In this document: positions 24,674 to 52,960 of the stretch, piece after piece | How positions within the stretch are numbered: the stretch's first letter is position 1 | Layout: each line of letters starts with the position of its first letter | Assembly (NCBI GenBank): GCA_963806905.1 | Contig: CAWEAA010000006.1 | Span: 13,640-77,639 of the forward strand | Length of the DNA stretch: 64,000 bases | Direction of reading: 5' to 3' | Origin: an uncultured Verrucomicrobiae bacterium | GTDB taxonomy: Bacteria > Verrucomicrobiota > Verrucomicrobiia > Limisphaerales > UBA11358 | The notes under the pieces: model-generated | Told to the model about the DNA's origin: nothing | Database searches by the model: none | The model's input: the letters and a program-made list of their open reading frames with translations, nothing else | Program-made: the position numbers and the translations under genes

Positions 24674-25591
24674 AGTTTTTACTGTTGCTTCCAGACTCGC
24701 CACATCCGACACATTCAACGTCTGCGCATTTTTTTCAATCCGCTTCATGAAACCATTCAAGGCCGTGCCGGGGCCGAGTTCGATGAACCGCGTGAAACCT
24801 TGCGCCAGCAACGTGCGCATGGATTTTTCCCAAAGCACCGGTGACGTGACCTGTTCGACCAGCCGCGCGGAAATTTCCGCCGCGCCGCCGTGCGGTTGCC
24901 CTGTGACATTGGAAATCACCGGCACGAACGGCGATGCGATGGTTATTTTCGCCAACGCCGCCTGTAGCTTCGGCTGTGCGCTCGCCATGAGCGGCGAGTG
25001 ATATGCCCCGGCGACCGGCAATGGTATCGCGCGCTTCGCGCCCCTCGTTTTGGCGAGTTCGACGGCTTTGGCAATTTTGTCCGTTTCGCCCGAAATGACA
25101 AGTTGGCCGGGACAATTCAGATTCGCCAGCATCACGCCAGCCTCGGCGCAGACCCCGCGCGTCGGCGCTTCGTCCAACCCGATGACCGCAGCCATGCCGC
25201 CGCGTGTCGCGTCGCACGCTTCCTGCATGAATTTTCCGCGTTGGCGCACAACGCGCAAGCCGTCCTCAAAACTCATCGCACCCGCGGCCGCCAGCGCCGT
25301 GAATTCGCCGAGCGACAATCCGGCGGTGGCGTCAAATTGGAGCGACGGCGCCTGTTCCTTGAGCAATTGGAACGCGACCCAGCTCACGAGGAAAATGCCG
25401 GGCTGGGCGTTTTCGGTTTTGGTCAATTCGGCGTCGGGGCCATTGAAACAAATCGCGGCGAGGTCATAACCCAGCGCAGCGTTGGCGCGGTCGAACCAGG
25501 CTTTGGCCGGTGGAAATTTATCGGCAAGGTCCTTGCCCATGCCAACGGCCTGCGCGCCTTGCCCGGCGAACAACAATGCAGTTTTGCTCAT
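24662..25591 (-). CDS. fabD: Malonyl-CoA:ACP transacylase
   Basis: 309 aa from the ATG at 25591 (ORF open to 25651). FAGQGAQ motif and GLSLGEF active-site serine motif. Confidence 0.9.
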   Translation of the reverse strand: MSKTALLFAGQGAQAVGMGKDLADKFPPAKAWFDRANAALGYDLAAICFNGPDAELTKTENAQPGIFLVSWVAFQLLKEQAPSLQFDATAGLSLGEFTALAAAGAMSFEDGLRVVRQRGKFMQEACDATRGGMAAVIGLDEAPTRGVCAEAGVMLANLNCPGQLVISGETDKIAKAVELAKTRGAKRAIPLPVAGAYHSPLMASAQPKLQAALAKITIASPFVPVISNVTGQPHGGAAEISARLVEQVTSPVLWEKSMRTLLAQGFTRFIELGPGTALNGFMKRIEKNAQTLNVSDVASLEATVKTLAS

Positions 25592-25643
25592 AAACAGTCG
25601 AAAATGAACCACGAAATGGGTACCAAAGAAAGACTGAAAAATC

Positions 25644-25746
25644 GGAAACATTCAACAACCAACAACCAACATCGAACATTCAATGCCGCTGAGAGCGCAC
25701 ATTGATTGGGTGTTGAGCGTTGAATGTTGAATGTTCGATGTTTTCC
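25644..25746. repeat. aacattc-heptad hairpin repeat (copy 1)
   Basis: Left arm is ggaaacattcaacaaccaacaaccaacatcgaacattcaatg; right arm is cattgattgggtgttgagcgttgaatgttgaatgttcgatgttttcc. Short loop. Confidence 0.85.
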
Positions 25747-25748
25747 GT

Positions 25749-26312
25749 TTATTTCCTCTGATACGTCCCCATCAACTGTCCTTCAGCCAGGACGTGTCCT
25801 TCCATAGCCTTGAGCAAATCCTTTTTCGTCACGGCGGGTTTGAGGTCGAGCACCCGGTCGAGCGCGTATAGCTTGAAAAAGTAGCGATGCGGTTTTCCTG
25901 GAGGCGGACACGGCCCGCCATAACCGAGCCGCCGAAAATCGTTCACCCCCTGTTTGGCATTGCCGGTGATGTTTTGGGTTTTGGCAACGTTCTCGGGTAA
26001 TGCGCTGCTGTCGGCGGGCAAATCATAAAGCACCCAGTGCACCCACGTGCCGACGGGCGCGTCCGGATCGTCGGCGATGAGGGCGAAACATCTGGTGTTC
26101 GCTGGCGCATTCGTCCATTGCAGCGGCGGCGATACGTCATTGCCGTCGCAGGTGTATTTTGCCGGAATCGGCTCGCCGTCGGCAAACGCGGCGCTGGTGA
26201 GCGATGTTTTCATAACGTGTCCTTTGGTGGCTTGGGGTTCCTGCGAGCAACCGGCGGTGACAAAGCCGGCCAGGAACATTGCGGTGAAAATCACTTTTCG
26301 TTGCGCGCCCAT
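25749..26312 (-). CDS. YbhB/YbcL-family PEBP lipoprotein
   Basis: 187 aa with lipobox VTAGC. PEBP motifs DDPDAPVGTWVHW and GGPCPPPGKPHRYFFKLYALD. Confidence 0.85.
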   Translation of the reverse strand: MGAQRKVIFTAMFLAGFVTAGCSQEPQATKGHVMKTSLTSAAFADGEPIPAKYTCDGNDVSPPLQWTNAPANTRCFALIADDPDAPVGTWVHWVLYDLPADSSALPENVAKTQNITGNAKQGVNDFRRLGYGGPCPPPGKPHRYFFKLYALDRVLDLKPAVTKKDLLKAMEGHVLAEGQLMGTYQRK

Positions 26313-40102: not shown

Positions 40103-40108
40103 TCGGTT

Positions 40109-40200
40109 AAACATTCAACATTCAACGCCGAACGTCGAACATTCAATTTATTTTGCAGCGCACATTCGATGTTGAATGTTGAGCGTTGAATGTTCGGTGT
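40109..40200. repeat. aacattc-heptad hairpin repeat (copy 2)
   Basis: Left arm is aaacattcaacattcaacgccgaacgtcgaacattcaat and right arm is cattcgatgttgaatgttgagcgttgaatgttcgg. 15-nt loop. Confidence 0.88.
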
Positions 40201-48004: not shown

Positions 48005-48050
48005 GCGGCCATTGTGCGGAAGGCAAAGTCAGACTCAAGCTGTTTCCTCA

Positions 48051-48124
48051 TTTACGATTTGCGATTTACGATTGACGTGCGCGCCGGACCAAATCGCGTC
48101 AATCGTAAATCGTATATCGCAAAT
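48051..48124. repeat. tttacga-heptad hairpin repeat between divergent genes
   Basis: Left arm is tttacgatttgcgatttacgattgacg and right arm is cgtcaatcgtaaatcgtatatcgcaaat. The first 16 nt of the stem pair perfectly. Confidence 0.88.
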
Positions 48125-48187: not shown

Positions 48188-48745
48188 GTGAAAATCTTGG
48201 TTGCCATCACCGGAGCCAGTGGCGCGCTTTACGCGCAGCGTCTGCTCGACAACCTCGACCCGCGCCGGCACGAACTGCACGTCGTGATGAGCAATTACGC
48301 GCAACAGGTCATTACCGAGGAATTGCCCGGCGGCCTGCGCCTGCCCGCCGGGGTCAAGACACACAACGTCAAAAGCATGAACGCGCCGTTCGCCAGCGGC
48401 TCGAATCCGCCGGATGCCATGGTCGTCATCCCCTGCACGATGGGCACGATGGGCCGCATCGCGCACGGTTACAGCGAGGACGTTTTGCTGCGCGCCGCCG
48501 ATGTGGTGTTGAAGGAACGGAAAAAGTTGATTCTGGTCCCGCGCGAAACGCCCTTGAGCCTCGTCCATGTCAAAAACATGGAATTGCTGCTGCAGGCCGG
48601 CGCGACGATTCTGCCGGCCAACCCGGGTTTTTATTCGAACCCGAAAACCGTCCAGGAAGTCGTGGACACCGTGGTCGCGCGGGTGCTGGACCATCTGGGC
48701 CTGCCGCAAAAACTTGTTTCGCGCTGGACCGAAGAAAAAGAATGA
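48188..48745 (+). CDS. ubiX: UbiX-family flavin prenyltransferase (MqnL-like in a futalosine-pathway organism)
   Basis: 185 aa from the GTG at 48188 (VKILVAITGASGALYAQRLL). The upstream part of ORF 48014 runs through a repeat and is not family-like. Confidence 0.85.
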   Translation: MKILVAITGASGALYAQRLLDNLDPRRHELHVVMSNYAQQVITEELPGGLRLPAGVKTHNVKSMNAPFASGSNPPDAMVVIPCTMGTMGRIAHGYSEDVLLRAADVVLKERKKLILVPRETPLSLVHVKNMELLLQAGATILPANPGFYSNPKTVQEVVDTVVARVLDHLGLPQKLVSRWTEEKE

Positions 48746-49257
48746 ATATGAAAAACGGGAAACGCTCAACATTCAACATTCAACATTCAACTCCCAAGGA
48801 TTCGGAGGCGAAGGTTTGGAAATTCAATGAAGGCGCAGGAGGAAATCGAAAGTTTGATCTGGAAGACCGGTTGCTGGAATTCGCCTCGGCAATCATTGAC
48901 CTATCCGAAATGCTTCCGGCCACACGCACGGGCAACCATGTGGCGGGGCAAATTTTGCGTTCCGGCACTTCGCCTTATCCCAATCACGGTGAAGCTGAAG
49001 CGGCCGAGTCTCGTGACGACTTTATTCACAAATTGAAGATCTGTCTCAAGGAATTGCGCGAAACCCGTCGCTGGGCAAGGCTGATCAAGCGGAAAGCCTG
49101 GGTGAAAAATGAAACTACACTCCTGTTTGTGCTGGGTGAGTGTGAAGAATTGATCCGCATCTTTCACTCGAGCATCCAGACCGCAAAGCGACATGCGCAG
49201 ACCGAACCGCCGCGGACGGCAGTTCCGTTGCGTCATTTTCCCAGCGCCACCGGCTGA
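48742..49257 (+). CDS. Four-helix-bundle protein (23S rRNA intervening-sequence protein / Avd-like family)
   Basis: 171 aa if started at the ATG overlapping the ubiX stop (ATGA). Family-like core: GQILRSGTSPYPNHGEAEAAESRDDFIHKLKICLKELRETRRW. The first 18 codons cross the repeat arm, so the start is uncertain. Confidence 0.7.
   Translation: MNMKNGKRSTFNIQHSTPKDSEAKVWKFNEGAGGNRKFDLEDRLLEFASAIIDLSEMLPATRTGNHVAGQILRSGTSPYPNHGEAEAAESRDDFIHKLKICLKELRETRRWARLIKRKAWVKNETTLLFVLGECEELIRIFHSSIQTAKRHAQTEPPRTAVPLRHFPSATG
48757..48795. repeat. aacattc-heptad repeat, left arm of a split hairpin
   Basis: Sequence gggaaacgctcaacattcaacattcaacattcaactccc. Its partner arm lies 463 nt downstream. Confidence 0.85.
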
Positions 49258-49258
49258 T

Positions 49259-49308
49259 GCTTCGATGTTGGGCGTTGAGCGTTGAGCGTTGAATGTTGAA
49301 TGTTCTCC
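49259..49308. repeat. aacattc-heptad repeat, right arm of the split hairpin
   Basis: Sequence gcttcgatgttgggcgttgagcgttgagcgttgaatgttgaatgttctcc. It starts 2 nt after the four-helix-bundle stop and contains the ubiA ATG. Confidence 0.85.
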
Positions 49309-50196
49309 TTTGCTAACAAATGGCTTGCCTTTGTGCGTTTCCCGCACACGGTTTTCGCCCTGCCATTTGCGCTGGCGGCGATGATGGTGGCGGCGCGCGA
49401 TAACCGCGGCTGGCCGGGCTGGAAGATTTTCGGACTGATTCTTGCCGCGATGATTTGTGCGCGAACCTGCGCGATGGCTTTCAATCGCGTCGTTGACAGA
49501 AAATTCGATGCGCTGAATCCGCGCACGGCCAGCCGCCACTTGCCGACCGGACAAATCTCGCTGACGAGCGCAATCGCACTCTGCACGCTCTCAGCAGCCG
49601 GTTTGATTGCCGTCAGTTATCTTCTAAATCCAGCGTGCTTTTACCTGTCGCCCATCGCATTGGTGGTGATTTGTTTCTATTCGTTTACAAAACGGTTCAC
49701 AGATTACACGCACGTTTTCCTGGGCCTTTCCCTAGCGCTCGCGCCGATCGGCGCGTGGCTGGCGGTCAAAGGCGCGGACGTTTCCGTTCTGGAAATTGTA
49801 CAGATGACCACGCTCGCGCTGGCCGTGGTGGTGTGGCTGGTCGGGTTCGACATCATTTACGCGCTGCAGGATTACGAGTTCGACAAATCGCACGGCCTGC
49901 ACTCGCTCGTGGTGGCGTGGGGACCGAAGAATGCGCTGGCGGCCGCGTTTCTGGCGCACATGATCATGTGCGGACTGCTGCTGCTGTTCGGATTGCTCTG
50001 CCAGTTCCGCATCGCGTATCTCGCCGGCTGGTTCGTCATCGTTGGCTGCCTGGTGTTGGAGCACTGGATTGCCCGCCGCCGCAGTCTGAACTGGATTAAC
50101 CTCGCCTTTTTCCGGCTCAACGCCCTCGTCAGCGCGGTGTTTTTGATTGTGACCGTGGCCGAAGTGGTGTTTCAGGGCGGATTCAAATTGCGGTGA
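49300..50196 (+). CDS. ubiA: UbiA-family aromatic prenyltransferase (MqnP-like)
   Basis: 298 aa. Motifs FPHTVFALPFA and ARTCAMAFNRVVDRKFDALNPRTASR; about 8 TM helices. Confidence 0.85.
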   Translation: MFSFANKWLAFVRFPHTVFALPFALAAMMVAARDNRGWPGWKIFGLILAAMICARTCAMAFNRVVDRKFDALNPRTASRHLPTGQISLTSAIALCTLSAAGLIAVSYLLNPACFYLSPIALVVICFYSFTKRFTDYTHVFLGLSLALAPIGAWLAVKGADVSVLEIVQMTTLALAVVVWLVGFDIIYALQDYEFDKSHGLHSLVVAWGPKNALAAAFLAHMIMCGLLLLFGLLCQFRIAYLAGWFVIVGCLVLEHWIARRRSLNWINLAFFRLNALVSAVFLIVTVAEVVFQGGFKLR

Positions 50197-50206
50197 GAGG
50201 AAGCCG

Positions 50207-50305
50207 GGGAACATTCAACGCTCAACATTCAACTTCCAACGCCCAACGGGATGCGTGCGAAACAGTTCGATATTGAGCGTTGAATGTTGAACGTTCGATG
50301 TTCCC
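50207..50305. repeat. aacattc-heptad hairpin repeat (copy 4)
   Basis: Left arm is gggaacattcaacgctcaacattcaacttccaacgcccaac and right arm is gttcgatattgagcgttgaatgttgaacgttcgatgttccc. 17-nt loop. Confidence 0.88.
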
Positions 50306-50353: not shown

Positions 50354-52960
50354 ATGAGTGGCACCAAAATGACCCCGTCCGACATCCCGAAATGTTCGCA
50401 GTGCGGCACGCCGTTGCCGGCGGGCGCGCTCGCCGGGCTTTGTCCCGCGTGCCTGTTGAAACAGGGCGCGGCCGACGAAACCGCCACGGGAGGACAGGCG
50501 CCACCATTCAACCCGCCGCCCCTTGCCGATCTCGCCGCGAAATTTCCCCAGCTCGAAATCCTGGAACTCATTGGCAAAGGCGGCATGGGCGCGGTTTATC
50601 GGGCACGCCAGAAGCAATTGGACCGGATCGTCGCCCTGAAAATCCTGCCCCCCGGCATTGGCGACGATCCCGCGTTTGCCGAACGCTTCACCCGCGAGGC
50701 TAGGGCGCTGGCGAAGCTCAATCATCCCGGCATCGTGACGTTGTATGAGTTCGGCAAAGCCGACGGGTTGTATTTCTTCCTCATGGAATTCGTAGACGGC
50801 GTGAACCTGCGGCAACTGCTTCATGCCGGGCGCATTTCACCGCGCGAGGCGCTGGCCATCGTGCCGCAGATTTGCGACGCGCTCCAATTTGCGCACGATC
50901 AGGGCATCGTCCACCGTGACATCAAACCGGAGAATATTTTGCTCGACCGCCGCGGCCGCGTGAAGGTGGCGGATTTCGGGCTGGCCAAGATTGTAGCGGC
51001 GGTCTGTGACCGCCAGGATTCTGTCGGGGAAGAACAGCGACGGTCGCAGACCGCCGCTACAGGGGAACTCACCGCTGCCGGCAAGGTCATGGGCACGCCG
51101 AACTACATGGCGCCGGAACAGGTGGAACATCCCGACGAAGTGGACAGCCGCGCGGACATTTACGCGCTGGGCGTGGTATTTTACCAGATGCTCACCGGCG
51201 AACTGCCGGGCAAAAAAATCGAACCGCCATCGTCCAAAGTGCAAATTGACGTTCGCTTGGATGAAGTCGTGCTGCGCGCTTTGGAAAAGAAACCCGAATT
51301 ACGCTACCAGCAGGCCAGCGAAGTGAAGACGATGGTGGAGACTATCGTGGCGAACAATCCCAGTCCGATTGCGCCTCCCGTTCAATCTCAACCTTCCACT
51401 CAAACCGTGAACATCATCAAATCGTTTTTGCGCTGGGCGGTCATGTTTGCCGGTGTGACCGCTTGTGCGGCCCTCGCCGTGTTTGCCATCCTGTTCCTTC
51501 TCAAAACGCAAATCATACTCGGACCTTCGGATTCCGATGTGGCAAGCGCCGGCGCAAACTGGATTCCGGACGCGAAAGGTGGAGGCTCCGTGTCGGTTGA
51601 TTTTAACGACCCGGCGACCAAGGGCGGTTATGATTTCGTGCTCTACAACACCAGCAACTTCGTCGCCGGTGTGGAGAATTACGCCGTCTGGCGTTGTCCA
51701 ATTTTTTCCGTCGGCCCCGCCGCTGATGGAGCGAGGCCCATCGCCCTTTCTTTTGCCTACAAGCTCGCGGATCCCGTGGCCGCCGGGAATAACTTGCGTC
51801 TCCAGTTGCGCTTCTGGGATTCCAGCGGCACCAATTTCATGGGGGAACGAAACATTCGTGTAGGTGCCCACACAGGCGATTCGGCCATGACCAGCCACAG
51901 AACGTTGACGATTAACGGCATCACGGCTCCGCTGAATGCCCGGACGATTGATATTGCCATCTACGCCAATGCAAATTCTGACGAACCCTGGGTTTCGGGC
52001 ACCGGACGGTTTGCCAACATTTCCGTCACAACCACGGCGCATTCTTTGCTTTTCAAAGCTAGCGTCGTTGCGGCTGCTTTGATCGGTATTCTCGTTTTGA
52101 TCATGCTGCTGATTCTCTTTTGGCGTCGGAGCACGCCGGCCCTTCCATCCAGTCCGGTTGCACCTCCTGCTCGATCTCAACCTTCCACCCAAACCATGAA
52201 TACAAACATCATCAAATCAATTTGGCGCGGGGCGGTCATGTTTGTCGGTGTCGCCGCTTGCGCGGCCCTCGCTGCATTTGCCATTCTGTTTCTTTTCAAA
52301 CATCAAATGATGCTCGGACCGGCCGATTCCGGCCCATCCAGTGGTGGCGCAAATTGGTTGAGTGGCGCCTATGGTGCCAGCACGGTGTCCATTGATTCCA
52401 GCGATCCCGCCACCAAAGGCGGTTATGATTTAGTGATCAGCAACACGGTTGCCGGCAAAGAAAACAGGTCGGACTGGCGTAGCCTGCCTTTTACGCTCGG
52501 CCCCGCCGCCGGAGGAGCAAGACCAATCACTTTTTCCTTCGCTTATAAACTTATGGATGCTGTGTCGAACGGAAATAATATCCATGTTCAACTGCGTTTC
52601 TTCGATTCGACTGGCACGAAGTTTATATCTGAGAAGGTCATTCCGGTCGGCGCTCAGACGGGCGACTCGACAATGACAAGCTATAAAACATTCACGATGG
52701 GCCGCATCATTGCTCCCCGGAAAGCCCGGACTGCCGATGTTTGGATTGATGCCAATATTTTTAAACCGTGGGTTTCGGGCACAGCGCAATTTGCTGACAT
52801 TTCCGTCACGGCCGCGCCGCCTTCCTTGCTCTTCAAGGCTGGTGTCTTCGCGGCTGTCTTGGCCGCCATTTACGCTTTGATTATGCTACTGGTCCACTTT
52901 TGGCGTCGGAGTGCGCCTTTGCCAGCCGCAGGTGGCCCAACTTTGGAGCAATTGGTTTGA
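50354..52960 (+). CDS. Ser/Thr protein kinase with two tandem TM-ectodomain-TM sensor modules
   Basis: 868 aa. N-terminal Cys pairs (CSQCG..CPACL) and kinase motifs GKGGMGAVY, HRDIKPEN, DFG and APE. Four predicted TM helices flank two paralogous domains of about 190 aa. Confidence 0.88.
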   Translation: MSGTKMTPSDIPKCSQCGTPLPAGALAGLCPACLLKQGAADETATGGQAPPFNPPPLADLAAKFPQLEILELIGKGGMGAVYRARQKQLDRIVALKILPPGIGDDPAFAERFTREARALAKLNHPGIVTLYEFGKADGLYFFLMEFVDGVNLRQLLHAGRISPREALAIVPQICDALQFAHDQGIVHRDIKPENILLDRRGRVKVADFGLAKIVAAVCDRQDSVGEEQRRSQTAATGELTAAGKVMGTPNYMAPEQVEHPDEVDSRADIYALGVVFYQMLTGELPGKKIEPPSSKVQIDVRLDEVVLRALEKKPELRYQQASEVKTMVETIVANNPSPIAPPVQSQPSTQTVNIIKSFLRWAVMFAGVTACAALAVFAILFLLKTQIILGPSDSDVASAGANWIPDAKGGGSVSVDFNDPATKGGYDFVLYNTSNFVAGVENYAVWRCPIFSVGPAADGARPIALSFAYKLADPVAAGNNLRLQLRFWDSSGTNFMGERNIRVGAHTGDSAMTSHRTLTINGITAPLNARTIDIAIYANANSDEPWVSGTGRFANISVTTTAHSLLFKASVVAAALIGILVLIMLLILFWRRSTPALPSSPVAPPARSQPSTQTMNTNIIKSIWRGAVMFVGVAACAALAAFAILFLFKHQMMLGPADSGPSSGGANWLSGAYGASTVSIDSSDPATKGGYDLVISNTVAGKENRSDWRSLPFTLGPAAGGARPITFSFAYKLMDAVSNGNNIHVQLRFFDSTGTKFISEKVIPVGAQTGDSTMTSYKTFTMGRIIAPRKARTADVWIDANIFKPWVSGTAQFADISVTAAPPSLLFKAGVFAAVLAAIYALIMLLVHFWRRSAPLPAAGGPTLEQLV
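50993..51060. repeat. GTAGCGGC...GCCGCTAC element in frame in the kinase activation loop
   Basis: Arms gtagcggcggtctgtgaccg / cggtcgcagaccgccgctac (19/20 complementary) enclose 28 nt. Translated VAAVCDRQDSVGEEQRRSQTAAT, between the DFG and APE motifs. Confidence 0.85.
51362..52939 (+). repeat. Intragenic tandem duplication (2 x 789 nt) in the kinase gene
   Basis: SPIAPPVQSQPSTQT... (from 51362) and SPVAPPARSQPSTQT... (from 52151) align over about 263 codons, roughly 55-65% identical by eye. Confidence 0.85.

Follow-up and report, generated by a model that had tools for sequence, protein, structure and literature searches.

A four-helix-bundle gene between inverted heptanucleotide arrays at the ubiX–ubiA junction of an uncultured Verrucomicrobiae bacterium

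The ubiX–ubiA junction and its heptad arrays

An open reading frame (ORF) of the four-helix-bundle (FHB) family lies between the gene for a UbiX-family flavin prenyltransferase and that for a UbiA-family, MqnP-like prenyltransferase, all three on the + strand, in a stretch of 64,000 nucleotides (nt) from an uncultured Verrucomicrobiae bacterium (contig CAWEAA010000006.1, positions 13,640 to 77,639; hereafter the window), and is enclosed there by two inverted arrays of heptanucleotide units (heptads). The ORF belongs to the family by its matches to the profiles TIGR02436 ‘four helix bundle protein’ (75.6 bits, cut-off 24) and PF05635 ‘23S rRNA-intervening sequence protein’ (42.1 bits, cut-off 33.8), which span residues 42–148; its N-terminal 37 residues, including the translated left array, are located ahead of the conserved domain. 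Comparison of the protein with the Bacteroides structure PDB 2RLD gave E = 2e-14, or 1e-44 when the family profile was used. The domain carries the family motif Q-x-L-R-S-G-T-S...N-x-x-E-A...D-F-I-H-K-L...E-T...W, and the conserved pattern that we tested (Q-x2-R-S-x-T-S ... N-x2-E ... S ... K ... E-x2-E ... W) is present in the window protein along with every invariant column of the family alignment (Q33, R36, S37, T39, S40, S53, K60, E67, E70, and W74), in agreement with the motif GxxRxxxSxxxNxxE described in PMC3936711. A four-helix-bundle fold that assembles as a pentamer is predicted for it from homology with 2RLD and 2GSC, both of them solved structures.

An earlier note on this DNA had placed the FHB gene in the loop of a heptad inverted repeat dividing ubiX from ubiA, an arrangement that the profile matches and our arm search bear out. 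The inverted-repeat search returned two arms of 44 nt (48754–48797 and 49268–49311) with 77% complementarity and a separation of 470 nt. Parsed into heptads, the left arm reads AACGGGA AACGCTC AACATTC AACATTC AACATTC AACTCCC, and the right arm, given as reverse complement, AACATTC AACATTC AACGCTC AACGCTC AACGCCC AACATCG. The same parsing moves the beginning of the right arm, previously put at 2 nt after the FHB stop codon (49255–49257), to 6 nt. The cassette, as we call the gene plus its arms, is welded to the translation signals of its host genes: the FHB ATG and the ubiX stop codon TGA (48743–48745) overlap as ATGA (48742–48745), and the ubiA ATG (49300–49302), already noticed to lie in the right arm, sits inside its outermost unit GAATGTT. 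The UbiA N-terminus, MFSxxNKW, is kept in relatives, and its counterpart at a cassette-free junction (locus L057, see below) is MILTIQKW. In an RNA fold of a 581-nt segment, the long-range stem formed by the arms closes the minimum free energy (MFE) as well as the centroid structure (z = −2.95), so the arms are able to pair thermodynamically, as had been supposed.

The 14-mer motif AACATTCAACATTC, with ≤2 mismatches allowed, occurs 20 times in the window versus 0.52 expected, a count matched by 0/100 shuffles. Four AAC-type elements reside in these 64 kb and many more across related loci; the three compact heptad hairpins reported before were all recovered (Table 1), and further hairpins of this arm architecture that lack a gene are dispersed over the same genomes. 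None of the hairpins coincides with a T-run terminator. A promoter and terminator scan, the promoter part of which covered the sigma-70-type consensus only, found no site in or at the cassette or the hairpins, and an Rfam scan of the window, run at the gathering threshold and again with E values allowed up to 1, gave only chance matches to miRNA-like hairpins and no rRNA. Searching PADLOC and PHROGs with the FHB protein gave no match; hence, those libraries lend no support to a role in defense or in phages.

Arm units that carry an ATG, such as GAATGTT, can mislead start-codon calling. The longest fabD ORF begins at an ATG within a hairpin arm (25590–25651). Hairpin arms as a general source of the downstream start codon were considered and rejected for fabD, the true start of which (MSKTALLFAGQ) is found ~55 nt past the hairpin; an arm-supplied start codon is secure for ubiA only and ambiguous for the aminotransferase gene. 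The hairpin of a different heptad type at 48050–48124 is a perfect one of 20 bp plus in the divergent region separating the amidase gene from ubiX, and a Planktothrix FHB cassette (L087) has arms built in part from this heptad type as well. On the other side of the locus, a Ser/Thr protein kinase ORF of 868 aa (50354–52960) contains two tandem copies of a ~250-aa module, each composed of a proline-rich stretch, a ...SQPSTQT... motif, a transmembrane segment and then a similar extracellular-looking domain. From its sequence, this two-module layout looks like an internal duplication.

Table 1. Positions of the genes, arms, and heptad hairpins in the window
Feature	Position	Strand	Remarks
ubiX / MqnL-like flavin prenyltransferase	48188–48745	+	PF02441 156 bits, NF004685 194 bits
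FHB ORF, 171 aa	48742–49257	+	TIGR02436 / PF05635
Left arm, 6 AACNNNN heptads (48754–48795)	48754–48797	+	within codons 5–19 of the FHB ORF
Conserved FHB domain, residues about 38–148	48853–49185	+	profile (HMM) envelopes
Right arm, 6 NNNNGTT heptads (49263–49304)	49263–49311	+	begins 6 nt past the FHB stop
UbiA-family (MqnP-like) prenyltransferase	49300–50196	+	PF01040 161 bits, TIGR01475 272.8 bits
Gene-less heptad hairpin	25644–25749	.	between PEBP-family gene and fabD (both − strand); z = −4.1
Gene-less heptad hairpin	40107–40197	.	between two − strand genes, the downstream one an aminotransferase gene; z = −3.3
Gene-less heptad hairpin	50203–50305	+	directly 3’ of the ubiA stop; −42.7 kcal/mol, z = −5.3
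Hairpin of a different heptad (ATTTACG/CGTAAAT type)	48050–48124	.	−34.3 kcal/mol, z = −5.2

Relatives and the cassette as one unit

A scan for relatives with one genome per species yielded 80 loci, nearly all from Verrucomicrobiota metagenome-assembled genomes (MAGs) of Limisphaerales/Pedosphaera type; counts out of 81 include the window. The order ubiX–FHB–ubiA is kept in about 55 of the 80, at UbiX identities down to 72% and UbiA identities down to 62%. At least three AACNNNN units on each side of the FHB gene, in inverted orientation, were present in 73/81 loci, matching arms thus flanking paralogs and orthologs of the gene, and comparison of the relatives’ ubiX–ubiA junctions did not bear out the opposite picture of a gene residing at this site without repeats. 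The modal arm size is 5 units (51/76 left arms, 49/76 right arms), and the right arm most often starts 6 nt past the FHB stop, as in the window. Over 655 kb of sequence, the spacing of paired arrays is bimodal, either ≤60 nt (28 gene-less hairpins) or 381–620 nt (75 with a gene). Loops of intermediate size (61–380 nt) contained no decayed FHB remnants, which leaves the idea that the hairpins are derivatives formed by gene deletion unproven. Orthologs of the hairpin that follows ubiA were identified in L001, L006, L008, L011, L013, L015, L021, L024, L032, L037, L040, L050, L051, L060, and L064. In heptad hairpins of Opitutaceae (L075 7224–7442, L077 6802–6998), the loops of 134–149 nt have no trace of FHB; they enclose a second perfect palindrome of unrelated sequence, GTAGCTACGAGCGTGAGCGAGTGG...CCACTCGCTCACGCTCGTAGCTAC. 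Heptad hairpin loops seem to accept other inserts.

Among orthologs, the median dN/dS was 0.105 for FHB, 0.120 for UbiX, and 0.128 for UbiA, the first of these values indicating that the FHB protein is under purifying selection. A dS below 1.5 was reached in just 136 FHB pairs versus >1000 UbiX or UbiA pairs from the same loci (L001–L064), from which we infer that the cassette lineages are far older than the divergence of the host genes accompanying them. The insertion at ubiX–ubiA is ancient and fixed in a large Verrucomicrobiota group, the MAGs of Limisphaerales/Pedosphaera type, and is not a recent event.

The four variable bases of the heptad, which define what we term its flavor, differ between loci (ATTC, ATCC, ATCG, GCCG, CTTG/TTTG, GCTC, and others), yet the two arms match within a cassette. 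In the FHB protein tree, flavors form clean clades, with a nearest neighbor of the same flavor in 39/45 loci, whereas in the UbiX+UbiA tree this holds for 16/45, the permutation expectation being 16.0 ± 3.7. Host proteins that are 89% identical can accompany FHB proteins of just 57% identity, and neighboring elements of one genome can differ in flavor and still match internally (for example in L037, L064, and L032), in one case at a distance of 0.9 kb. Cassettes from other sites nest within clades of the ubiX/ubiA site in the FHB tree; one set of them lies between a gene for an HlyD-type membrane-fusion protein and a gene for an AcrB-type pump, where the ATGA overlap is seen once more. In L057 (326–1801, 2829–4590), the ubiX–ubiA junction is empty except for a 20-nt spacer and the cassette is found 2.3 kb away in the same mqn cluster, after an MqnC/CofH-like radical-SAM gene. 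The MAG containing L057 is assigned to an acidobacterial genus; its genes are 82–83% identical to Verrucomicrobiota ones, which suggests mis-binning.

Since flavor tracks the FHB tree and not the host tree, and since cassettes recur at other junctions, gene and arms have repeatedly been exchanged or relocated together: they are inherited and exchanged as one unit. The mobile cassette envisaged in the earlier note receives indirect support, in that its lineages are decoupled from the phylogeny of the host genes and recur at other operon junctions. A means of moving, by contrast, did not come to light: we found no mobility enzyme (transposase, recombinase, nuclease) in the cassette, whole genomes not having been searched for a transposase, and no recognizable target-site duplication at ubiX–ubiA relative to the empty L057 junction, the two sequences having diverged.

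In several loci, a single arm has expanded to 11–19 or more heptads while its partner has 3–6 (L065 2271–2382, L067 4475–4607, L063 4536–4612, L084 1320–1435, L090 1832–1932). Such one-sided expansion points to array-length instability (slippage) that acts on single arms. At a contig end (L074 1–920), serial blocks of AACGTCG/AACTTCG heptads extend on both sides of the FHB gene, with a AGAAGACAAAGACG-like spacer that recurs between the blocks; software for finding CRISPRs might misidentify this higher-order array.

FHB genes and period-7 arrays beyond the phylum

Probing plasmids by tblastn uncovered FHB genes in Nostoc, Anabaena, Planktothrix, Pseudanabaena, Gloeocapsa, and Euhalothece, and also in Chlorohelix (Chloroflexota), Bernardetia (Bacteroidota), Treponema, and Monoglobus (Bacillota). 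In these plasmid loci, from five phyla outside Verrucomicrobiota, heptads of unrelated sequence adjoin the gene in 10/10 cases as judged by eye; under a stricter scan of the same ten loci, period-7 arrays adjoined the gene on one side or more in 8/10 and on both sides in 3/10. The arrays are inverted in most of the ten, and the FHB genes typically lie between neighboring genes of an operon, such as hsdS/hsdR, helicase/methylase, DUF1156/HEPN, or csx2/cas1.

Two further genome scans, for which the solved proteins of Xanthomonas (2GSC) and Bacteroides (2RLD) served as seeds, supplied a wider sample of 160 loci from many phyla, 155 of them usable. Period-7 arrays were called at ≥17/21 lag matches, with shifted positions in the same loci serving as controls (n = 153). 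Of the 155 loci, 96 had an array upstream of the gene and 104 downstream, which makes 83 with arrays on both sides and 117 with an array on either side; controls had them on both sides in 0/153 and on either side in 8/153. Period 7 alone is enriched at FHB loci, periods 4–6 and 8–10 are not. An inverted-repeat score of at least 14 was attained by 111/155 FHB loci versus 0/153 controls. The arms have a median length of 4.6 units on each side (interquartile range (IQR) about 4.1–5.4), with rare expansions up to 34, and both neighbors are co-directional with the gene in 103/151 loci according to a crude ORF call. In Xanthomonas, Pseudoxanthomonas, and Rhodanobacter, the arms consist of GGGAATC-type units, although one Xanthomonas locus (L091) shows an evident array on the upstream side only. 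As a family-wide rule, then, FHB genes usually reside between inverted heptanucleotide arrays. The rule appears to be unreported: the Coxiella paper cited below aside, we found no open-access paper tying FHB genes to heptamer repeats generally, which is not proof of absence.

Readings of the cassette and their bearing on the family

Since the 1990s, the FHB family has been familiar as the ORF of 23S rRNA intervening sequences (IVSs); it is also the parent family of Avd of diversity-generating retroelements (DGRs). On balance, we favor the reading that the feature at ubiX–ubiA is one copy of a widespread, compact FHB cassette of the IVS type, with inverted arrays of ~4–5 heptads, which resides in a protein-coding transcription unit. 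By analogy, our best reading of this cassette is that it would be the same module as the ORF-bearing 23S rRNA IVSs of Leptospira, Coxiella burnetii, and Xanthomonas-type ‘S23p’: these likewise have a PF05635/TIGR02436 protein in the loop, terminal inverted repeats that make a long stem around the ORF, as seen at the window locus, and a sporadic distribution reminiscent of selfish elements. The Coxiella 23S IVS combines a 28-bp terminal stem with tandem GACAGAT heptamers, placed at the stem and upstream of its S23p ORF, and is cleaved by RNase III at the first of these heptamers (PMC4990558). The two differ in that the window cassette has an mRNA operon as host transcript, with ubiX and ubiA on its flanks, rather than an rRNA, and in that the start codon of the downstream host gene here lies within an arm. 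Moreover, the Coxiella ORF is decaying and probably not expressed, whereas the window FHB gene is coupled to ubiX and under purifying selection. The notion of a stem-plus-ORF module of the 23S IVS type inside an mRNA operon is strongly supported by the arms in relatives and distant phyla, the fold and the Coxiella heptamers, and has proved more general than originally guessed.

Avd has a homologous pentameric four-helix-bundle fold (PMC10053308; bioRxiv 10.1101/2023.10.23.563531) and binds a stem-loop of the DGR RNA (bioRxiv 10.1101/2023.10.23.563531). As is predicted for the FHB cassette, Avd is associated with RNA whose distant segments pair around cargo. The window gene does not classify as Avd: there is no reverse transcriptase and no template or variable repeat (TR/VR) beside it, its neighbors being amidase, ubiX, ubiA, and Ser/Thr kinase genes, and it is flanked by heptad arrays, the sole repeats there, instead of TR/VR. 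Given the kinship to Avd, a binder of structured RNA, the FHB protein would be expected to bind nucleic acid as well, the arms of its own cassette being one possible target.

Intergenic tandem 7-mers also make up the short tandemly repeated repetitive (STRR) sequences of cyanobacteria, the GGGAATC repeats of Xanthomonas, and the GGGGA(C/T)T repeats of Nostoc, and the arrays that bracket cyanobacterial FHB genes resemble STRRs. The papers on such repeats take them for simple sequences or G-quadruplex elements, assign no role to them and attach no gene family; the Xanthomonas GGGAATC heptamer, for instance, was described as ‘quadruplex-forming’, highly enriched and arranged in 70–75 convergent (inverted) pairs, with the FHB family unmentioned (PMC4692102). 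The window arrays share with them tandem 7-nt units in non-coding DNA, specifically of period 7. They depart from them in their AAC-anchored flavor and in the left arm, which in the window lineage is within the ORF.

As to mechanism, the cassette is probably co-transcribed with ubiX and ubiA, no promoter being recognizable in the sigma-70-type scan. In the transcript, the arms would pair as a stem of 33–44 bp, with the FHB ORF looped out and the stop of ubiX placed alongside the start of ubiA. A stem of this kind is what RNase III cuts in rRNA IVSs, and on this ground the messages for UbiX, FHB, and UbiA would likely be parted by processing. Ribosomes that terminate at ubiX or initiate at FHB would unwind the left arm and so make the start of ubiA accessible, which would preserve translational coupling across the insert.

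Several observations weigh against this RNA-centered account. RNase III cleavage at the window arms is an extrapolation from rRNA IVSs, plausible yet without backing from the mismatch spectrum. Stem mismatches on the sense strand comprise 91 G·U versus 112 A·C in the Verrucomicrobiota loci and 106 versus 106 in the wide sample; without an excess of G·U over A·C, the sequences provide no evidence for selection on RNA pairing rather than on symmetry at the DNA level. In Limisphaerales, the left arm is part of the translated FHB ORF, so the stem could form only on ribosome-free RNA. The window arms reach only 77% complementarity, and a variant unit in one arm does not always have its counterpart in the other. 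What keeps up the inverted symmetry may therefore act on the DNA: slippage combined with template switching, or a mobility mechanism, would keep the arrays alike as terminal inverted repeats, and RNA pairing would follow from this. A pairing comparison fits repeat flavor: the arms of a cassette gave 23.5 Watson–Crick pairs in the best 28-nt duplex with each other versus 19.1 with arms of other flavor (P = 3e-28), and same-flavor arms taken from other loci paired equally well as the cassette’s own. For this comparison, arms were scored by heptad parsing and ungapped duplex counts; RNAduplex on 160-nt flanks had been dropped, as the long inputs inflated the energies and discriminated poorly (−98 for matched, −85 for mismatched).

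The alternative to be taken most seriously, possible but in our view doubtful, is a mobile element that operates at the DNA level, in which the arrays serve as terminal inverted repeats for transposition, recombination, or hairpin-templated DNA repair, the gene-less hairpins are derivatives akin to MITEs (miniature transposable elements with inverted repeats) or landing pads, RNA pairing and RNase III cutting are by-products, and the FHB protein is the element’s own nucleic-acid-binding factor or simply cargo. Hairpins of the MITE or repetitive extragenic palindromic (REP) type are transcribed within mRNAs, and some, such as the Correia elements of Neisseria, are cut by RNase III. As in those families, we see short inverted-repeat elements in operons, with many copies per genome, that are predicted to fold in the transcript and may be RNase III substrates, and the window has both the inverted termini and the dispersed copies of a MITE. 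The strand symmetry of the mismatch spectrum, in which the G·U type equals the A·C type, suits a DNA element, as does complementarity at the level of repeat flavor instead of position by position. Further points in its favor are the shifting of cassette lineages between sites and hosts, loop sizes that are bimodal with a gene or none, the additional palindrome nested in the Opitutaceae loops, and the persistence of arms where the FHB gene is antiparallel to its neighbors (L082, L090). However, the arms are freely evolving heptad arrays and not a conserved terminal inverted repeat, and the cargo is a conserved gene. The cassette lacks a transposase, recombinase, or nuclease, and we know of no cognate transposase for it; the FHB protein has no recognized catalytic motif and no PADLOC or PHROGs match, a target-site duplication is not visible against the empty L057 junction, and the insertion is ancient and stably syntenic.

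Recognition of the repeats by the protein is a different possibility, which we consider unlikely. A pentameric FHB ring would bind the 4–5 heptads of an arm with one subunit per heptad, comparable to TRAP and its spaced triplets, and binding would control stem formation, translation of its own message or expression of the flanking genes, with flavor co-evolving with the protein. The solved relatives 2RLD and 2GSC were each deposited with five chains, and Avd as a homolog binds the DGR RNA stem-loop (bioRxiv 10.1101/2023.10.23.563531). Arms keep tightly to 4–5 units in unrelated lineages (mode 5; median 4.6), their period is invariant while their sequence is free, and flavor tracks the FHB tree. 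Concordance of flavor and protein is, however, explained equally well by co-inheritance; some loci have arrays of 10–34 units, and gene-less hairpins locally far outnumber genes.

Very little, by comparison, speaks for a host-domesticated accessory of menaquinone biosynthesis, in which synteny would reflect FHB working with UbiX and UbiA. The position between the two genes is kept across many genera, FHB is under purifying selection and translationally coupled to ubiX, and even in L057 the cassette has stayed in the mqn cluster after the MqnC/CofH-like gene. Yet close cassettes are found in unrelated operons (HlyD/AcrB, hsdS/hsdR, helicase/methylase, cas genes), cassette phylogeny is decoupled from that of ubiX/ubiA, and the L057 ubiX–ubiA junction does without a cassette, all of which makes such an accessory highly improbable. 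A coincidence, with the gene caught by chance between two generic REP- or terminator-like intergenic repeats, could appeal to the same type of gene-less hairpin being common in intergenic regions of the window, but is contradicted, and practically discounted, by the arms in 73/81 relatives, by both-side arrays in 83/155 distant loci versus 0/153 controls, by the lack of T-run terminators at the hairpins and by the constant spacing of the arms to start and stop codons.

A much bolder idea, to which we attach only slight credence, is that the FHB (S23p/Avd-like) family and the heptanucleotide tandem repeats belong together, across bacteria, as the two parts of a single system, the protein making, maintaining, or using arrays of 4–5 heptads at the ends of its own gene. 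Conceivably, a reverse transcriptase or polymerase could act as the partner of FHB and copy a 7-nt template over and over onto each of the two 3’ ends of a mobile intermediate, which would give inverted arrays of the same flavor without selection on pairing. If this were true, thousands of gene-less hairpins (STRRs, the Xanthomonas GGGAATC pairs, the window hairpins) and the rRNA IVSs would be footprints of that system, the excess of heptamers in bacterial genomes would have a single mechanistic origin, and a very large family would gain a function.

Returning to the IVS-type cassette, the rRNA IVSs would be one habitat of a general cassette in transcription units, which extends to restriction-modification, CRISPR-Cas, efflux, and quinone operons. 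There is also a warning for annotation, as host start codons and apparent N-terminal extensions can derive from repeat arms. Few ‘hypothetical’ families are as abundant as FHB in Bacteroidota, Cyanobacteriota, Verrucomicrobiota, and other groups, and heptanucleotide tandem repeats (STRRs, Xanthomonas GGGAATC, and a general excess of 7-mers) have been catalogued for decades, to our knowledge with no explanation. The locus described here and its comparisons tie this family to heptad repeats whose flavor drifts with the gene lineage while their period and length stay fixed, and the link between the two may account for the puzzling heptanucleotide repeats of bacterial genomes.

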